In this document: piece by piece, positions 50,658 to 63,467 of the stretch
How the letters are laid out: every line of letters begins with the position of its first letter
Position numbering within the stretch: position 1 is the first letter of the stretch
From: Candidatus Endomicrobiellum cubanum
GTDB lineage: Bacteria; Elusimicrobiota; Endomicrobiia; Endomicrobiales; Endomicrobiaceae
Length of the DNA: 64,000 bases
Assembly: GCA_031269735.1 (NCBI GenBank)
Contig: JAISYS010000008.1
Coordinates: 16-64,015 of the forward strand
Direction of reading: 5' to 3'
The notes under the pieces: model-generated
Seen by the model: only the letters and a program-made list of their open reading frames with translations
Told to the model about the DNA's origin: nothing
Databases searched by the model: none
Position numbers and translations under genes: made by a program

Positions 50658-50821
50658 TTTTTTATATGTAAAATCTTATAGGTGTTTGTGGTTTGTTGTC
50701 ATATTAAAGCACTTTTTTTGATATTAAAACTAAAGATCTTGTAGAATACTGTAATCTGTGTAGTTGCTGCCACGCAATCTTTCTGCACAGACATTTGTTG
50801 TTAATTATTACTAGGTAAAAT

Positions 50822-51098
50822 TTTACACCTTGTATACATTATGCGGCTAAACTCCATGAAGCAATTGCCACTATTCATCTTTTTAGGAAGAACAGCAAGA
50901 CTTGTTATAAATCTTACCTTGCTACAAGATGGTTATCCTATTGTTATTATAGTGCCTATTTTAAGGAGTGATTATAAATACTATAAAGTTAGCTAATAAA
51001 GGTAAATTTACTCCCTTCTTATAACTTTATTACCTAACGTAGAATATGGAAGCGTAAGGGACTACATCAGAATTATTAAAACATCTGATTTAAAGTAG
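50822..51098 (+). pseudogene. Relic of a Fic-domain gene (multiple frameshifts/stops, catalytic motif destroyed)
   Basis: Three-frame reading: HYAAKLHEAIATIHLF / GRTARLVINLTLLQDGYPIVIIVPILRSDY..stop / KGKFTPFL...EYGSVRDYIRIIK. Corresponds to ...IHPFxDGNGRTxRLLxNLxLxxxGYP... with the P and DGN lost. Confidence 0.65.
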
Positions 51099-51249
51099 AA
51101 TTTTAGCAAATGTCAAATTATTTTTAGCTGTGGATTACTAAAGGAAGATATTTCATACTAATAACTTAGACTTACCACTTAAGTGTGGAAATAAAAGTGA
51201 CTTCATTGAATATTTTGTAGATTAATCAAAAATAAGGAGAAATACTCTT

Positions 51250-53733
51250 ATGGCAACACATAGACTTGTAAGATGGAGTAAAGATGCCTTCAATTTTCTA
51301 CAATCTGCTGATGACAATAGTATAGTTTTAGATCTTGTTATATCTTATGCCTGTGCTACTCAGACAGGAGAGGGATTTGAAGAACTTGTTAATACAATAA
51401 ATAGTGAAAATATAAAGTGTAAAATAAAAAAAGTTAATATTACCGATACCTCTTATTTGTATAGATATAGCATTCTAGAATTTTCTAAATATTTAAACCC
51501 AGATATTCCAACTTTGTGGTATTTAAGAAATAAAGATTCTATAGATAAGTTACAGGTCGATACAGAGATAAAATCATGGGCAGTAGGGCTCCAAAGCGAT
51601 GAATTTGAGTACTGGAATAAACAAATAAGGACTGATTTTGCTGGAGATGAAAAAGGCAATGGTATAATAGAAGGGTTCAAAGAAATAGTAATGGATACAG
51701 TAAAAACATCAATCGCTAAAACGGGTGATACATTTGAACATTGTGTAGACTTTATATTAGAAGAATGTGCCTATACCTGTGCGCATTTTCAAAATGTAAT
51801 CATGGTGTATCCAATGACTCTACGGCCGATAGAACCTATAATTAAACGCTATAATTTGAATATTCGTCAACTTGCGTACAAGATGTCAGATTATGCAGAA
51901 AAACATAAAAATCGTATTCTAAGTGCAAACAATATGGATCGTGAAATAATTGAATTTATTACTCATAGAGCTGACAATGTAAACTTTTTTATAATAGATA
52001 AATTGGGGAATCTTTTATATAAAAATGAAGCATGTAAAAAGCAAGTAAGAGACATGCATGTAAGAGGTCTAGGTCAAAAGACATGGGAAACAACGCTTGA
52101 TGTTATAAAGTCAAAAAAGCAAGTTATTATAGAAGAAAAATCTAAAGAAGGGCAAAGGTACCTTTCTGTTAAAGCTCCTCTGATGGTGGATGGTAAAGTA
52201 GAAGGAGTGATAGGGTTAGCGGTTGATATAACGGATAAAAAAAGGTTAGAAGAATTAGAAATTCTAAACAAGTTAAATGAAGAAAGAAAAGTTATAGCAA
52301 AGCGTGTAGAGCATGATATAAGTGGACCGTTAAGTGTATTGGAATTATTTGTATTAAATAATAAAGATATATCAGATAAAGATAGAATGCAAATAGATGC
52401 TGTAGTAACACGAATAAGAAATATATCAGGTAGTTTGTTTAAGGAATATAATAAGGATAGCGGATTGGAATTGGAAGGCAGTAAAATGTCAAAGAAATAT
52501 ATTTGTATAGATTTATGTTTGGAAGAGATAATTGCTGAAAAGAGATGTCAATATAATATAGATTCTAAAGTGACGTTTAGATATACTTCGCCAATGGATA
52601 AGAATAAGATATTTATAAAAGGATATTATTCTGATTTTTGCAGGATGATATCAAACTTGATAAATAATGGAATAGAAGCCATTGGCTCTAAAGAAGGTAT
52701 TGTAGATATAAAGTTAAGTGTAAAAGACGCGAAAGTGGAAGTAAAGATAAGAGATAGCGGGTTAGGAATGCCTCAAGAAATGATAGATAAAATAATGGAA
52801 GATAAAGAAATAGGCACAACAAAGAAAGAAGGCCACGGGATAGGAATGGGACAAATTAAGAGTGTCTTGAGTGAGATCAAAGGTGAAATGAGGATAAAGT
52901 CAAAAACAAATTTCGGATCTAATAATGAAGTATTGGTGCTTCCCACAGGTACAGAGGTTACATTGATATTTCCGCAGTCAGAAAGTCCAGAATGGAGTGC
53001 AGATAAAATAACATTACACAAAGAGGATATAGTAGTAGTATTAGATGATGATATTATGGTTCATGAAACTTGGAAAGGACGTTTTCAGGAGTATTTGGAA
53101 GATATTAAAGTTGAGTATTTTTTACAAGCTCAAGAAGCTATAAATTATATAAATTCAAAAAAAGAGGAAGAAGTCTTTCTACTTGTAGATTATGAATTAA
53201 GAGGCCAAGGAATAAATGGTGTGGAGGTAATAGAGGAGTGTAAAATGCAAAATAGATCGATATTAGTGACAAAAAATATACATGCGGTAAGAATAAAGGA
53301 TTTTGATAAGAAAAGTGAATTTTTAAAGATATTACCGAAAATGTACGTGAAAAACGTACAGATATTATTAGAGGAAAAGGGAATAAAAAAAAAGGATAAA
53401 GCAGATTTTGTATTTGTAGATAACGATGATCTTTTTGCAAGCGTATTAAAGAAAGTTTTGGAACTAAAAGGGTTAAGAGTAGATGTATATACAGATGTAG
53501 AAGACTTTATTAAGAATTTAGATAAATATTCAAAAGATACAAAGATAGTAACAGATAATAATTTGGGTTGTAATAAGATAGATGGATTTGAACTAGCAAA
53601 GAAATTAAATGAAATTGGATATATAAGATTGTACATGATATCTGGAAGTGAATTTAGTAAAAATGAAATTCCATCATATCTTAAAGTTATGTTGAAAGAA
53701 GGAGCAGTGATAGATAAGTTGCTAATGATGTAA
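51250..53733 (+). CDS. Soluble hybrid sensor histidine kinase: unassigned N-terminal domain (~225 aa) - PAS - HisKA-like - HATPase_c - two receiver-like domains
   Basis: 827 aa, no TM segment. PAS end motif VDITDKKRLEELE; H-box RVEHDISGPL; N/G boxes NLINNGIEA, DSGLGMP, GHGIGMG. REC-like segments VVVLDDD...LLVDYEL and FVFVDND...IVTDNNLG..IDGFEL. Confidence 0.85.
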   Translation: MATHRLVRWSKDAFNFLQSADDNSIVLDLVISYACATQTGEGFEELVNTINSENIKCKIKKVNITDTSYLYRYSILEFSKYLNPDIPTLWYLRNKDSIDKLQVDTEIKSWAVGLQSDEFEYWNKQIRTDFAGDEKGNGIIEGFKEIVMDTVKTSIAKTGDTFEHCVDFILEECAYTCAHFQNVIMVYPMTLRPIEPIIKRYNLNIRQLAYKMSDYAEKHKNRILSANNMDREIIEFITHRADNVNFFIIDKLGNLLYKNEACKKQVRDMHVRGLGQKTWETTLDVIKSKKQVIIEEKSKEGQRYLSVKAPLMVDGKVEGVIGLAVDITDKKRLEELEILNKLNEERKVIAKRVEHDISGPLSVLELFVLNNKDISDKDRMQIDAVVTRIRNISGSLFKEYNKDSGLELEGSKMSKKYICIDLCLEEIIAEKRCQYNIDSKVTFRYTSPMDKNKIFIKGYYSDFCRMISNLINNGIEAIGSKEGIVDIKLSVKDAKVEVKIRDSGLGMPQEMIDKIMEDKEIGTTKKEGHGIGMGQIKSVLSEIKGEMRIKSKTNFGSNNEVLVLPTGTEVTLIFPQSESPEWSADKITLHKEDIVVVLDDDIMVHETWKGRFQEYLEDIKVEYFLQAQEAINYINSKKEEEVFLLVDYELRGQGINGVEVIEECKMQNRSILVTKNIHAVRIKDFDKKSEFLKILPKMYVKNVQILLEEKGIKKKDKADFVFVDNDDLFASVLKKVLELKGLRVDVYTDVEDFIKNLDKYSKDTKIVTDNNLGCNKIDGFELAKKLNEIGYIRLYMISGSEFSKNEIPSYLKVMLKEGAVIDKLLMM

Positions 53734-61516: not shown

Positions 61517-61548
61517 GATTTTTTTGTGATTTGAAAAATGAAGTTATC

Positions 61549-63085
61549 ATGAAAATAAAACTTAAAATTAGTTTAAGGATGGAGCTTGTTGTTCTAGTCG
61601 TTGCGATTGTTATATTTGTCGTGGCAGTTTTTTCTTACTTTTTTATTTCTACATATAAATCTTATTTTGTACAAACTTTTCAATTAAATACCAAAAGACA
61701 AACTTATAAACTTGCTGATTCAATTGTTAATAGTGTATCTTTAAAAAGAAATGATATTATAGAAGATTATATCGGCAATACAATACGAGAAAGTGACATT
61801 GTTTGTGTTGAAGTTTACGATAAAAACTTTAAGAAACTTGCAAGTTGTAAGATTTTAAATAAAACGTTAGAAGATATTTTAAATAATCACAAAATTAATG
61901 AGAAGGCTGATATTCTTTTTGGAAAGTCAAGAGCCATAGGATATTTTTATAAGTATAAAGGAAAAACTAGTGCTTTTGAGTATATAGCTCCTGTAATTTT
62001 TTATAGTAGTGGAAATACAGATGGCGAAATTATAGCTTTTGTAAGAGTTATTTCATCTTTTAAAAATATTGATAAAGCTTTAACAAAAATAATTAAAAAT
62101 ACTCTTTCTCTAGCAGTTTATGTTATTTTGATTAGCATAGTAGTATCTTTTTTTATTACAAGATTGTTTGTTGAGCCAATAAATAAAGTTATTAGTATTA
62201 CTAGACAAATATCACAGGGCGATTTTTCTAATAAAGTCCCCTTATTTAAAGAGATAGAATTGAGAGTTTTAGCTATATCTGTTAATATGATGTCTAGTCA
62301 TTTAAAGAGAGTTTTAGATGTATTGCACAGTGAAAAAGAAAGTTTATTAAATGCTCAAGAAAACTTAGAAATAAAAAACAAATCAAATAAAGAACTTGTT
62401 TTGAAAGAACGAAAAATGCATATAAAGTTAATAAAGGAAGAGCGTTTTTATACAATCGGTAGACTAGCAGGTTCTCTAGCACACGAAATTAAGAATCCTT
62501 TAACTAGCTTTAAAAATATTATTTATTTTATTTCAAAGACGGAAAATTTTAAAAATGAAGAAGCAAAAAAAATGTTTAATATGCTTACAGATAATGTGAC
62601 AAGAATTAATAATATTTTGACAGAGCTTTTGGATTATTCTGAACTGAATAGTTTAAACAAAACTCAAAATTGTATAGATGAATTAATTAATAAAGTCATT
62701 AAAACTATATATACCCAACAATATAAGGTTAAAAATGGATTTAAAGCATATTGCTGCTTTAACTGACAAAGAAAGTTTTAGAAAAGTAATAAGACATTTA
62801 ATTATAAATTCTGTAGATGCAATGCCATTTGGTGGTAATATCTTTATTTCTGCAGATAAAGTAGAAAATAAATTAGAGTTAAGAATAAGAGATACTGGTT
62901 TTGGTATTGATAGTGATATAATAAAGAATATTTATGAACCTTTATATACAACAAAAGTGAAAGGCGTAGGATTAGGATTGGCCATAGTAAAAGAAATTAT
63001 AGAAATGCATAAAGGCACAATCCTTTTAAATAGCAAAGTTGGTAAAGGTACGGAGTTTATTCTACATATTCCAGGTGTTTTGTAG
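61549..63085 (+). pseudogene. Membrane HAMP sensor histidine kinase split by a frameshift at an A5 run (62731-62735)
   Basis: ORF 1 (to 62766): 2 TM + periplasmic domain + HAMP + H-box LAHEIKNPL. ORF 2 (from 62735, next frame): HATPase_c (NSVDAMPFGGN, DTGFGI, GVGLGLAIV). Removing one A restores ...YKVKMDLKHIAALTDKE... Confidence 0.8.
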
Positions 63086-63086
63086 C

Positions 63087-63467
63087 ATGGAGATAAAATG
63101 TAAAATAAGCCCTACCATATTAGTTGTAGATGATGAAGATTCGTTGAGTTTTTCATTAATAAGTATTTTAAAGATGGAAGGTTATGAAGCTGTATCGGCA
63201 AATAGTGGTAAGAAAGCTATAGAGCTTATAAAAAATAATAAGTTTGATGCAGCCTTTTTTGATATAAGATTACCAGACATGAATGGTGTTGAATTGTTAA
63301 GAGAAGCAAAACTAATTAATAATAAACTAATTGTTATTATGATGACAGCATATGCATATAATGATCTTATAAAAACAGCAATACAAGAGGGAGCGTTTAG
63401 GTGTTTAAGAAAACCTTTTGAAGTTATAGAAATGCTGAATCTTGTGAGGAACTTATTTAAAGAATAA
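63087..63467 (+). CDS. Single-domain response regulator (CheY-like receiver, no output domain)
   Basis: ATG 63087 directly after the kinase stop. ILVVDDEDS...FFDIRLPDMNGVELL...IIMMTAY...KPF. Confidence 0.9.
   Translation: MEIKCKISPTILVVDDEDSLSFSLISILKMEGYEAVSANSGKKAIELIKNNKFDAAFFDIRLPDMNGVELLREAKLINNKLIVIMMTAYAYNDLIKTAIQEGAFRCLRKPFEVIEMLNLVRNLFKE

Follow-up and report, generated by a model that had tools for sequence, protein, structure and literature searches.

Cyclodipeptide synthases (CDPSs) are Rossmann enzymes of the class-Ic aminoacyl-tRNA-synthetase type, which pass the aminoacyl group of an aminoacyl-tRNA to a serine and from there into a cyclodipeptide; to our knowledge they have been described solely as enzymes of secondary metabolism, which draw aminoacyl-tRNAs away from translation. 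Bacteria, for their part, signal mainly through histidine kinases. In a stretch of 64,000 nucleotides from Candidatus Endomicrobiellum cubanum (the window), one gene encodes a hybrid histidine kinase in whose unassigned N-terminal region a weak resemblance to CDPSs had been noticed by eye. The questions raised by this locus are whether the resemblance is real and, if so, what such a domain would do at the front of a phosphorelay protein.

The gene and its product

The open reading frame is intact, starts with ATG and is preceded by a ribosome-binding site (Table 1). Its N-terminus, MATHRLVRW, lines up in the alignment with the N-termini of all relatives, and an identical protein is found as MDR1522574.1 under the public name "GHKL domain-containing protein [Endomicrobium sp.]". 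The highest Kyte-Doolittle mean over 19 residues is 1.14, in agreement with the earlier statement that the protein has no transmembrane (TM) segment. The gene is real and intact, and its product is soluble.

Table 1. Features of the fusion gene, in window coordinates
Feature	Position	Strand	Basis
Ribosome-binding site AAGGAG	51234..51239	+	Direct sequence reading, 10 nt 5' of ATG
Whole gene, CDPS-PAS-DHp-CA-REC-REC hybrid histidine kinase, 827 aa	51250..53733	+	ORF, Pfam, database identity
Cyclodipeptide-synthase (XYP-type) domain, residues 1-~222	51250..51915	+	Profiles, hhalign, AF2, Foldseek
Ser32 codon, position of the acyl-accepting nucleophile (AlbC S37, Nbra S34, Rgry S29)	51343..51345	+	Alignments
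Tyr71 codon, family-specific Tyr at the Nbra-CDPS Q69 position	51460..51462	+	Conservation, covariation
FILEE, residues 168-172; Phe168 at the AlbC Y178 place, Glu172 at the AlbC E182 (catalytic base) place	51751..51765	+	
Tyr187-Pro188, AlbC Y202 and Pro of the XYP signature	51808..51813	+	Conservation
PAS domain with N-cap helix, residues ~226-326	51925..52227	+	AF2 model, Foldseek, weak Pfam
Signalling helix and DHp, residues ~328-440	52231..52569	+	Model helix, H-box
Phospho-acceptor His355, codon	52312-52314	+	H-box HDISGP at 355
HATPase_c catalytic ATP-binding domain, residues 462-576	52633..52977	+	Pfam E 2.3e-14
Receiver 1, residues ~593-705	53026..53364	+	Alignment
Acceptor Asp647 of receiver 1, codon	53188-53190	+	Alignment
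Receiver 2, residues ~720-827	53407..53730	+	Pfam Response_reg best stretch 722-800, alignment

The N-terminal region is an XYP-type cyclodipeptide synthase domain

Searched as a single sequence, residues 1-230 found no match in Pfam, NCBIfam or the PDB sequences, even at E <= 10, so that "unassigned" was a fair description. The Pfam family PF16715 (CDPS), which the sequence-only reading had named as a check, gave the same answer: its gathering threshold was not reached, and there was no match to the domain even at E <= 10. However, this model detects only 2 of the 42 relatives that link the window domain to known CDPSs and misses the other 40, so that a whole clade escapes it, although the profile of these linking proteins matches the solved and active Rgry-CDPS. 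We therefore read the non-match as poor coverage by the model, and Pfam is unable to decide CDPS membership here.

Profiles gave a different picture. The profile of the domain family, run against the PDB sequences, found 5MLP (E 1.5e-7), 5OCD (8.7e-7) and 5MLQ/9I5M (about 3e-5). Compared by hhalign with a profile of stand-alone CDPSs, built from 34 relatives with the window sequence excluded, the family gave a probability of 99.95 % (E 1.2e-38), and the profile of the stand-alone relatives in turn matched 5MLP at 2e-44, 5OCD at 4e-34, 5MLQ at 4e-33 and 6Y4B at 5e-32. The single window sequence scored 121 bits against the stand-alone-only profile, whereas the best of 1000 shuffles reached 7.3 bits, and the resemblance is therefore not due to chance. 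Concerning the fold, an AF2 model of the domain (pLDDT 84.3, pTM 0.79) was searched with Foldseek: the top 32 matches are all CDPSs (E 1e-11 to 2e-4), the best with TM 0.66-0.72 and with XYP members ranking first, and only then do TyrRS and TrpRS follow.

A fortuitous likeness, with the region adopting a Rossmann-like or aaRS-like fold that has no relation to CDPSs, would agree with the empty single-sequence searches and with the few linking relatives found by Pfam. Against it, profile, profile-profile and fold evidence converge on CDPSs with the catalytic motifs in register, and the TyrRS/TrpRS matches are weaker than the CDPS ones by seven to eight orders of magnitude; we consider this explanation hardly credible, as the fold search, hhalign, the stand-alone profile against the PDB and the shuffle test have effectively refuted it. 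Residues 1-~222 truly belong to the CDPS fold family, in its XYP type. Both the CDPS-like nature of the region and its XYP character, suspected by eye, are thus supported; a lack of significant profile or structure matches, or a clear match to a known sensor domain, had been named beforehand as evidence to the contrary, and what was found are CDPS matches of both kinds.

The active site appears retained but re-wired

The four motifs pointed out by the sequence-only reading are all real and, in the profile alignments, all in register with the solved XYP-type CDPSs: Ser32 in LVISYAC, VNITDT at 62-67, DFILEE at 167-172 and VYP at 186-188. The HMM alignments also reproduce its residue assignments, with Ser32, Phe168/Glu172 and Tyr187-Pro corresponding to AlbC S37, Y178/E182 and Y202-[HP]. 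Ser32, in the place of AlbC S37 at the end of beta3, is present in 98 % of the fusion family and 91 % of the stand-alone members; the corresponding values are 94 and 97 % for Glu172, 94 and 93 % for Tyr187, and 94 and 88 % for Pro188. In the fusion family, each of these four residues is 94-98 % conserved in about 49 sequences that are otherwise only ~40-55 % identical. By their alignment to CDPS structures, and on this basis only, Ser32, Glu172 and Tyr187 would lie around one pocket.

The only position that switches class between fusion and stand-alone proteins is 168, which is Phe in 94 % of the fusions, while the stand-alone relatives have Tyr in 85 % and Phe in 13 %. In CDPSs the Tyr178-type residue normally stacks on A76 and hydrogen-bonds the ester; here this tyrosine of helix alpha7 is absent and Phe168 stands instead. 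The second peculiarity is Tyr71, which 94 % of the fusion proteins have but only 18 % of the stand-alone members. In the latter the two features covary (Phe168/Tyr71, 7/11 vs 6/56, Fisher p 4.5e-4). The residue of Nbra-CDPS in the place of Tyr71, Q69, hydrogen-bonds to both the substrate amine and Y172 (PMC13062777), so that Tyr71 sits at a substrate-contacting position next to that of Phe168. In AlbC, the Y178F mutant has poor activity and yields little acyl-enzyme (PMC3105412); the window domain could therefore be a weak catalyst or serve only for binding. Taken by its conservation, the active site appears essentially retained, with Ser32, Glu172 and Tyr187-Pro188 kept, but re-wired through Phe168 and Tyr71.

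The presumed P1/P2 pocket positions, assigned by offset from anchor residues and not by structure superposition, vary among members whereas the catalytic positions do not; this variability could be drift. [quoted passage not shown] Whole-domain charge was discarded as a discriminator of tRNA binding, as fusion and stand-alone domains do not differ in it.

PAS, kinase and receiver modules

The remaining architecture described before, namely PAS, H-box, HATPase_c and two receivers, was confirmed by Pfam, by motifs and by a fold match for the PAS domain. This last domain, which ends in ...VDITDKKRLEELE, has only weak PAS_4 (E 0.026) and dCache_1 matches in Pfam, and neither the single sequence nor a 20-sequence profile found a match among the PDB sequences, so that a fold search was needed. 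In the AF2 model of residues 210-350 (pLDDT 80.8) a long helix follows the PAS domain, and the top Foldseek matches are all PAS or LOV domains (BvgS PAS, Rv1364c PAS, NifL PAS, LOV-histidine-kinase chimeras). A LOV reading was rejected on direct inspection of the sequence, which has no NCRFLQ-type Cys motif.

Concerning the kinase, His355 is invariant in the 19 full-length members, and the N-box (N469/N473), G1 (D502-G506) and G2 (G528-G532) are kept in 17-18 of them. Receiver 1 carries an acidic pocket and the acceptor Asp as well as the Thr and Lys (in the same set, D599 in 19/19, D600 in 17/19, D647 in 15/19, T674 in 18/19 and K697 in 17/19), while receiver 2 occurs in only 3/19. The phosphorelay part is an intact PAS-histidine-kinase core with two receivers, in frame with the CDPS domain. 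Across 18 full-length members the identity is 40 % for the CDPS domain, 40 % for the ATPase domain, 32 % for DHp and 35 % for receiver 1; among paralogues the best-conserved module is PAS, with 44.5 % identity.

The CDPS domain as a putative input module

The CDPS domain stands where histidine kinases canonically have their input, at the N-terminus and ahead of the PAS N-cap helix, PAS, signalling helix and DHp, and for this reason we propose it as a sensory module; the model and Foldseek matches support this position, as the PAS fold carries an N-cap and a C-terminal helix as in PAS/LOV histidine kinases. In the reading that we consider most likely, with a probability of about 0.5, the CDPS domain would couple aminoacyl-tRNA binding or acylation, or the product, to kinase output. 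The acceptor arm of a specific aminoacyl-tRNA would bind the domain, and the aminoacyl group would be transferred to Ser32, possibly with slow turnover to cyclodipeptide. Binding or acylation would then shift the arrangement of CDPS and PAS, and this shift would set the autophosphorylation of His355 and phosphotransfer to Asp647. The kinase would in this way report aminoacyl-tRNA status, that is amino-acid charging, inside the host cell, and paralogues with different pocket residues might read different tRNAs. If the domain is a sensor, bacteria would have in it a means, not known until now, of reading amino-acid or tRNA charging status.

The flow of information could also run in the opposite direction, with PAS sensing an unrelated cue and phosphorylation of kinase and receivers controlling the output of the CDPS, whose cyclodipeptide would be aimed at the host or at competitors. 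The conserved catalytic residues agree with this, and a hybrid kinase with terminal receivers could act within its own molecule where, as here, neither a response regulator nor an Hpt protein is found nearby, a result that also counts against the input-module reading. Stand-alone CDPSs of the same clade are moreover present in other intracellular bacteria, namely Rickettsiella, Fluoribacter/Legionella and Ca. Glomeribacter (PMC5816076). Receiver 2, however, is dispensable in 16/19 members. A kinase-controlled synthase also conflicts with the general layout of histidine kinases, in which domains N-terminal to PAS-DHp are inputs in essentially all characterised cases and output domains come after the receivers; we regard it as quite unlikely.

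Distribution, copies and neighbourhood

The fusion family is multi-copy in Endomicrobiellum, and intact copies are also found in a second phylum, in Holosporaceae-like alphaproteobacterial MAGs; one genome has at least four copies. Both lineages that carry the fusion are known or suspected endosymbionts of gut protists, according to the literature. That the fusion is conserved and multi-copy implies that phosphorelay signalling is directly linked, at the molecular level, to the chemistry of aminoacyl-tRNAs or to the making of cyclodipeptides. The window itself has no second fusion copy; the one further match, at 62.8 kb, is to an unrelated HATPase.

In Endomicrobiellum, many copies are truncated, interrupted or carry stops, and the family is therefore not uniformly maintained. 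The orthologue in Ca. Endomicrobiellum cubanum is broken into two pieces of 722 and 91 aa, one divergent member (P0066) has also changed Glu182 to Gln and YP to CH, and another copy (P0088) is decayed and has lost Ser. Together with Phe in place of Tyr178, these cases would suit a dead scaffold, exapted for dimerisation or for binding another ligand, or a gene becoming a pseudogene in a shrinking endosymbiont genome. Yet the high conservation of Ser32, Glu172, Tyr187 and Pro188 speaks against such a fate, the CDPS domain is under the same degree of constraint as the ATPase domain, the copy in the window is intact and retains every motif, and intact copies persist in the second phylum; we judge a scaffold or relic improbable.

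The neighbours of the gene in the window are housekeeping genes (frr, uppS, cdsA, dxr, rseP; ispG, greA, proS), and no tailoring genes lie near the fusion in this locus or in three others. The window locus is not a biosynthetic cluster. The four loci share no tailoring, export or response-regulator neighbours, apart from a small PQ-loop membrane protein encoded directly upstream of the fusion in two alphaproteobacterial loci.

These surroundings bear on a further possibility, that one protein is both synthase and receptor of a signal: an active CDPS would make a membrane-permeant cyclodipeptide and the adjacent PAS would bind it, in the same cell or in neighbouring symbionts in the host cytoplasm, as an autoinducer-type quorum or density module. 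The residues of the full catalytic cycle are all kept except Tyr178, and Tyr187, for cyclisation, and Glu172, for the peptide-bond step, are conserved beyond what mere tRNA binding needs, so that a real synthase fits at least as well as a sensor. The Phe168/Tyr71 pair also occurs in stand-alone relatives of 230-270 aa, which are presumably enzymes; a bona fide ligand-sensor fold, PAS, directly follows the synthase; given the lack of tailoring genes in the examined loci, the synthesis would end with a diketopiperazine that is not modified further; and the upstream PQ-loop protein can be counted on the same side. On the other hand, matched specificities predict the opposite of what is seen, that is, a PAS domain more conserved than any other module next to a CDPS pocket that varies. 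No PAS ligand can be inferred, and we know of no established mechanism by which PAS domains sense cyclodipeptides. We hold this arrangement to be rather unlikely; were the synthase active, it would be the first of the diketopiperazine synthases to be coupled to a kinase of its own, and the long-debated signalling role of cyclodipeptides would become directly testable.

Comparison with known systems

In the literature searched, no CDPS-histidine-kinase fusion is described, nor are CDPSs in Endomicrobia or Holosporaceae; we found no prior description of this fusion, present here in two unrelated lineages. The solved XYP CDPSs are Rgry-CDPS (5MLP, cFF/cFL), Fdum-CDPS (5OCD), Nbra-CDPS (5MLQ/9I5M, cAE) and Cglo-CDPS (6Y4B). 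Besides the fold, profile homology and signature Pro, the window domain shares with them the order of motifs: beta3-Ser, the Q-x-G-E helix start, I-x-D-T-x-Y-L-x-R-H, W...W, (Y/F)-x-L-E-E-C-A and Y-P. It differs in its identity of about 15-18 %, in Phe at the Tyr178-equivalent position and in the family-specific Tyr71, and it has Cys35 where stand-alone relatives have Asn. While the solved enzymes stand alone at 210-300 aa, the window domain makes up the N-terminal 27 % of a signalling protein of 827 aa.

Fusions of CDPSs with a P450 ("CDPS 71"), a methyltransferase and an ABC transporter are known (PMC5816076, PMC5767969). In these too the CDPS is N-terminal in a larger protein, and at least one, CDPS 71, is active when isolated. 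Their partners, however, serve tailoring or export within biosynthetic clusters, and most such cases come from actinobacteria and the NYH subfamily, whereas the present partner is a PAS-histidine-kinase-receiver protein in housekeeping surroundings, in the XYP subfamily and in Endomicrobiia and Holosporaceae-like bacteria. Cytoplasmic PAS hybrid kinases (NahK/ErcS-type, LOV-histidine kinases/YF1) share with the window protein the PAS N-cap, a J-alpha-like helix to DHp, the H, N, G1 and G2 boxes and C-terminal receiver(s), but none has an aaRS-like or CDPS domain; the window protein has no LOV Cys motif and no HAMP, GAF or TM region.

With GCN2 the likeness is one of functional analogy only, in that an aaRS-related tRNA-binding domain is joined to a kinase and, under the favoured input-module reading, charging status would control the output. 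GCN2 combines a class-II HisRS-like domain with a Ser/Thr kinase (acting on eIF2-alpha) and senses uncharged tRNA; the domains found here, a class-I-like CDPS and a histidine kinase, set the window protein outside the GCN2 type. Extending the input-module reading, we tentatively suggest that endosymbionts of gut protists may carry paralogous "charged-tRNA sensor kinases", in each of which the CDPS-derived domain would capture, on Ser32, the aminoacyl group and acceptor arm of one aminoacyl-tRNA, and its occupancy would be relayed via PAS to the histidine kinase. This would amount to a functional counterpart of GCN2 in bacteria, derived from a secondary-metabolite enzyme and possibly passed on horizontally among symbionts that live together but belong to different phyla. 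For the ATP/ADP antiporter it is documented that Endomicrobiellum and alphaproteobacterial symbionts of protists share genes (PMC11257099), and the fusion adds a candidate case.

Identity of the N-terminal domain

The 827-codon ORF has an AAGGAG ribosome-binding site 10 nt 5' of its ATG, as read from the sequence, and a G+C content of 30.6 %, against 32.5 % for the window. Its product has the same sequence as MDR1522574.1, whose public name is simply 'GHKL domain-containing protein [Endomicrobium sp.]', and has no hydrophobic segment (top 19-residue Kyte-Doolittle mean 1.14). Pfam and NCBIfam recognise HATPase_c (residues 462-576), receiver domains and, weakly, PAS/Cache, and a single-sequence search of Pfam, NCBIfam and PDB sequences with residues 1-230 gave no match even at E <= 10. 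The sequence-only reading, which had described a soluble kinase with an N-terminus matching nothing nameable, was therefore accurate.

Relatives of residues 1-230 were gathered by a word-indexed search, which returned 32 proteins, many of them fragmentary, at 46-66 % identity; all those with a named source belong to Endomicrobium or Endomicrobiellum. A trimmed alignment of 18 sequences (A1) served as a profile for searching every PDB sequence, and matched 5MLP from Rickettsiella grylli (E 1.5e-7), 5OCD from Fluoribacter dumoffii (E 8.7e-7) and 5MLQ/9I5M from Nocardia brasiliensis (E about 3e-5), with nothing significant besides solved cyclodipeptide synthases (CDPSs). With HMMER, A1 found 253 matches among 1.84 billion representative proteins, and these fall into two tiers: 43 matches at E < 1e-30, whose non-fragments are long proteins (up to 827 aa) with PAS, kinase and receiver modules, and, from 1e-26 to 1e-8, stand-alone proteins of 230-380 aa. 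Built from 34 members of the second tier with the window sequence left out, the profile A3 matched 5MLP (2e-44), 5OCD (4e-34), 5MLQ (4e-33) and 6Y4B (5e-32) in the PDB, and hhalign joined A3 to A1 with a probability of 99.95 % (E 1.2e-38, 185 columns). The window sequence alone scored 121 bits against A3, the maximum of 1000 shuffles being 7.3 bits; a chance resemblance to CDPSs is effectively excluded.

The AlphaFold2 model of residues 1-228 (pLDDT 84.3, pTM 0.79) was compared with the PDB by Foldseek, and the best 32 matches were all CDPS structures. Members of the XYP subfamily lead (TM 0.66-0.72, E 1e-11 to 6e-9), followed by other CDPSs, mostly of the NYH subfamily and including AlbC, and only later by TyrRS and TrpRS, a ranking expected of a CDPS. 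The CDPS likeness, at first only a weak pattern seen by eye, was thus upheld by the family profile and by the AlphaFold and Foldseek comparison, while the Pfam model PF16715, also proposed as a check, gave no match. Compared with XYP enzymes, the domain shares the fold, the homology, the Ser, the Glu and the Tyr-Pro; it lacks the equivalent of Tyr178 and stays below the Pfam threshold, the latter because the CDPS model covers this clade poorly. PF16715 finds 2 of 42 linking relatives (A2), although the profile of that clade matches 5MLP, a solved and active R. grylli CDPS, at 2e-44, which explains why the domain stayed unannotated. Judged by PF16715 coverage, a sizeable share of the XYP subfamily escapes standard annotation.

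Active site

In the profile alignments Ser32, Phe168, Glu172 and Tyr187-Pro188 correspond to S37, Y178, E182 and Y202-(H/P)203 of AlbC, and to S34, Y172, E176 and (for the Tyr) Y194 of Nbra-CDPS, so that the residues picked out by eye were in register. When 49 fusion-family sequences were compared with 60 stand-alone ones, Ser32, Gln38, Arg72, Trp90, Trp110, Glu171, Glu172, Ala174, Tyr187 and Pro188 were kept in both groups. The N-terminal domain belongs to the CDPS family and keeps the nucleophile, the base and the Tyr of cyclisation. The sole class-switching position is residue 168, Phe in 94 % of the fusions and Tyr in 85 % of the stand-alone proteins.

In AlbC, S37A and E182Q are inactive, Y202F is reduced about 10-fold, and Y178F is 'poorly active' with far less acyl-enzyme (PMC3105412). 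Structures of Nbra-CDPS with a microhelix show Y172 stacked on A76 with its OH touching the ester carbonyl, Q69 hydrogen-bonded to the substrate amine and to Y172, and C169 in contact with the A76 base (PMC13062777). The window counterparts of Y172, Q69 and C169 are, by alignment, Phe168, Tyr71 and Cys165. Tyr71 occurs in 94 % of the fusion family versus 18 % of the stand-alone proteins; among the latter, which are not phylogenetically independent, it accompanies Phe168 in 7/11 and Tyr168 in 6/56 (Fisher p 4.5e-4, or 1.5e-3 without one redundant pair). We infer that Phe168/Tyr71 may reflect a hydroxyl that has moved, not an inactive site. Since the same pair is found in the stand-alone proteins P0086/P0188, P0094, P0096, P0110, P0146 and P0160 (188-276 aa), the variant probably predates the fusion, and these proteins would define an uncharacterised CDPS subgroup.

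[quoted passage not shown] With strand limits taken from alignment offsets, the net positive charge of beta2/beta7 is the same in the fusion domain as in its stand-alone relatives. The presumed P1/P2 specificity-pocket positions, set by offset from anchor residues, differ among paralogues.

Signalling modules and proposed mechanism

In the model of residues 210-350 (pLDDT 80.8) a PAS core of five strands is flanked by an N-cap helix and a long C-terminal helix, and the top fold matches are without exception PAS/LOV domains, LOV-histidine-kinase chimeras included. The sequence lacks the LOV cysteine motif, so the domain is not LOV. Of the 19 full-length members, all or nearly all keep His355 and the N, G1 and G2 boxes; in REC1 the acidic pair, the acceptor Asp647 (15/19), Thr674 and Lys697 are found, and only three members possess REC2. 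The PAS domain, H-box, HATPase_c and two receivers named from the sequence are all accounted for, and to judge by these residues the kinase and receiver(s) look competent. Mean pairwise identity is 40 % for the CDPS domain, 44.5 % for PAS, 32 % for DHp, 40 % for the ATPase and 35 % for REC1; by this measure the constraint on the CDPS domain equals that on the catalytic domain of the kinase.

To our knowledge, modules N-terminal to the PAS-DHp unit in histidine kinases are inputs, and for this reason we favour the CDPS domain as the input, the direction of information flow being read from its N-terminal position. The domain would bind aminoacyl-tRNA, Ser32 would become acylated, with or without slow release of a cyclodipeptide, and binding and acylation together would set kinase activity; we give this mechanism as a whole a probability of about one half. 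The protein might instead be a synthase plus receptor, PAS sensing the product of the CDPS domain, which seems rather doubtful to us. That the kinase controls the synthase we regard as unlikely. Neither a tailoring enzyme, an exporter, an Hpt protein nor a response regulator is adjacent to the fusion gene in the window. For the CDPS domain as input, the nearest analogy, and a purely functional one, is GCN2, where an aaRS-like tRNA-binding domain steers a kinase. We found no literature report of a CDPS fused to a signalling module; we take the fusion to be a new architecture that brings two well-known families together.

Distribution and decay

The fusion gene lies between rseP and ispG, within the conserved housekeeping block frr-uppS-cdsA-dxr-rseP ... 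ispG-greA-proS. Scanning species-representative genomes gave 27 loci of the family, in termite Endomicrobiellum/Endomicrobium MAGs (up to four per MAG), in Holosporaceae MAGs (L003, L006, L010, L011, L016) and in Alphaproteobacteria MAGs (L001, L007, L008). The alphaproteobacterial MAGs come, by their record names, from the same termite-gut series, goat cecum and red deer; their copies are intact (695, 703 and 822 aa), with the same CDPS-PAS-kinase architecture, N-domain identities of 45-56 % and unrelated neighbours. The whole architecture is conserved in two phyla. Other genes have been shown to move horizontally between Endomicrobiellum and alphaproteobacterial orders, uncultured and regarded as putative flagellate endosymbionts, of termites and ruminants; the fusion kinase is not mentioned there (PMC11257099). 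The second-phylum copies suggest horizontal transfer between protist endosymbionts. At two alphaproteobacterial loci a small PQ-loop (SemiSWEET-like) membrane protein is encoded directly 5' of the fusion gene (L016, 5574-5924; L008, 5385-5663), perhaps as a functional partner, perhaps just through synteny.

In Endomicrobiellum several copies are interrupted and several contigs end in a common repeat at the PAS/DHp junction. Premature stops reduce the ORFs at L002, L012, L017, L019 and L023 to 330, 253, 121, 43 and 146 aa, and Ca. E. cubanum carries the near-identical orthologue in two pieces, of 722 and 91 aa. Erosion of the family is under way in several Endomicrobiellum genomes. Weighing this decay together with the intact copies of the second phylum, we hold an exapted or decaying domain to be quite improbable.

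In Ca. Endomicrobiellum roisinitermitis Roe453_bin8, three paralogue contigs (L004, L005, L014) terminate in one PAS/DHp repeat, the terminal ~115 nt being identical in L005 and L014 and near-identical in L004. The H-box in this repeat reads VDDICSPG, with Asp replacing the phospho-acceptor His. The shared ends indicate either repeat collapse, gene conversion or a 3' part common to the paralogues. Other unusual architectures of the clade are a decayed N-domain copy that has lost the Ser and is joined straight to a REC2-like receiver (P0088), two CDPS domains in tandem (P0161, P0162) and a CDPS with some 300 aa of Ser/Pro-rich tail behind it (P0113).

Other features of the window

Positions of the fusion gene and of further features in the window
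Feature	Position	Strand	Remark
827-codon ORF (CDPS-kinase fusion)	51250..53733	+	ORF reading
Fic-domain gene remnant	50886-50993		in the 50658-51249 spacer 5' of the fusion gene; translation ends GRTARLVINLTLLQDGYPIVIIVPILRSDYKYYKVS (stop)
HAMP-HisKA ORF	61531-62766		first ORF of a separate conventional two-component system
HATPase_c ORF	62735-63085		separate, overlapping the HAMP-HisKA ORF
Receiver-domain ORF	63039-63467		after the HATPase_c ORF

The Fic remnant looks like a decayed pseudogene: HEAIATIHLF comes from an upstream piece in a different frame, which breaks the HPFxxGNGR motif. The kinase at 61531-63467 appears to be frameshifted, because HAMP-HisKA and HATPase_c are separate ORFs that overlap.
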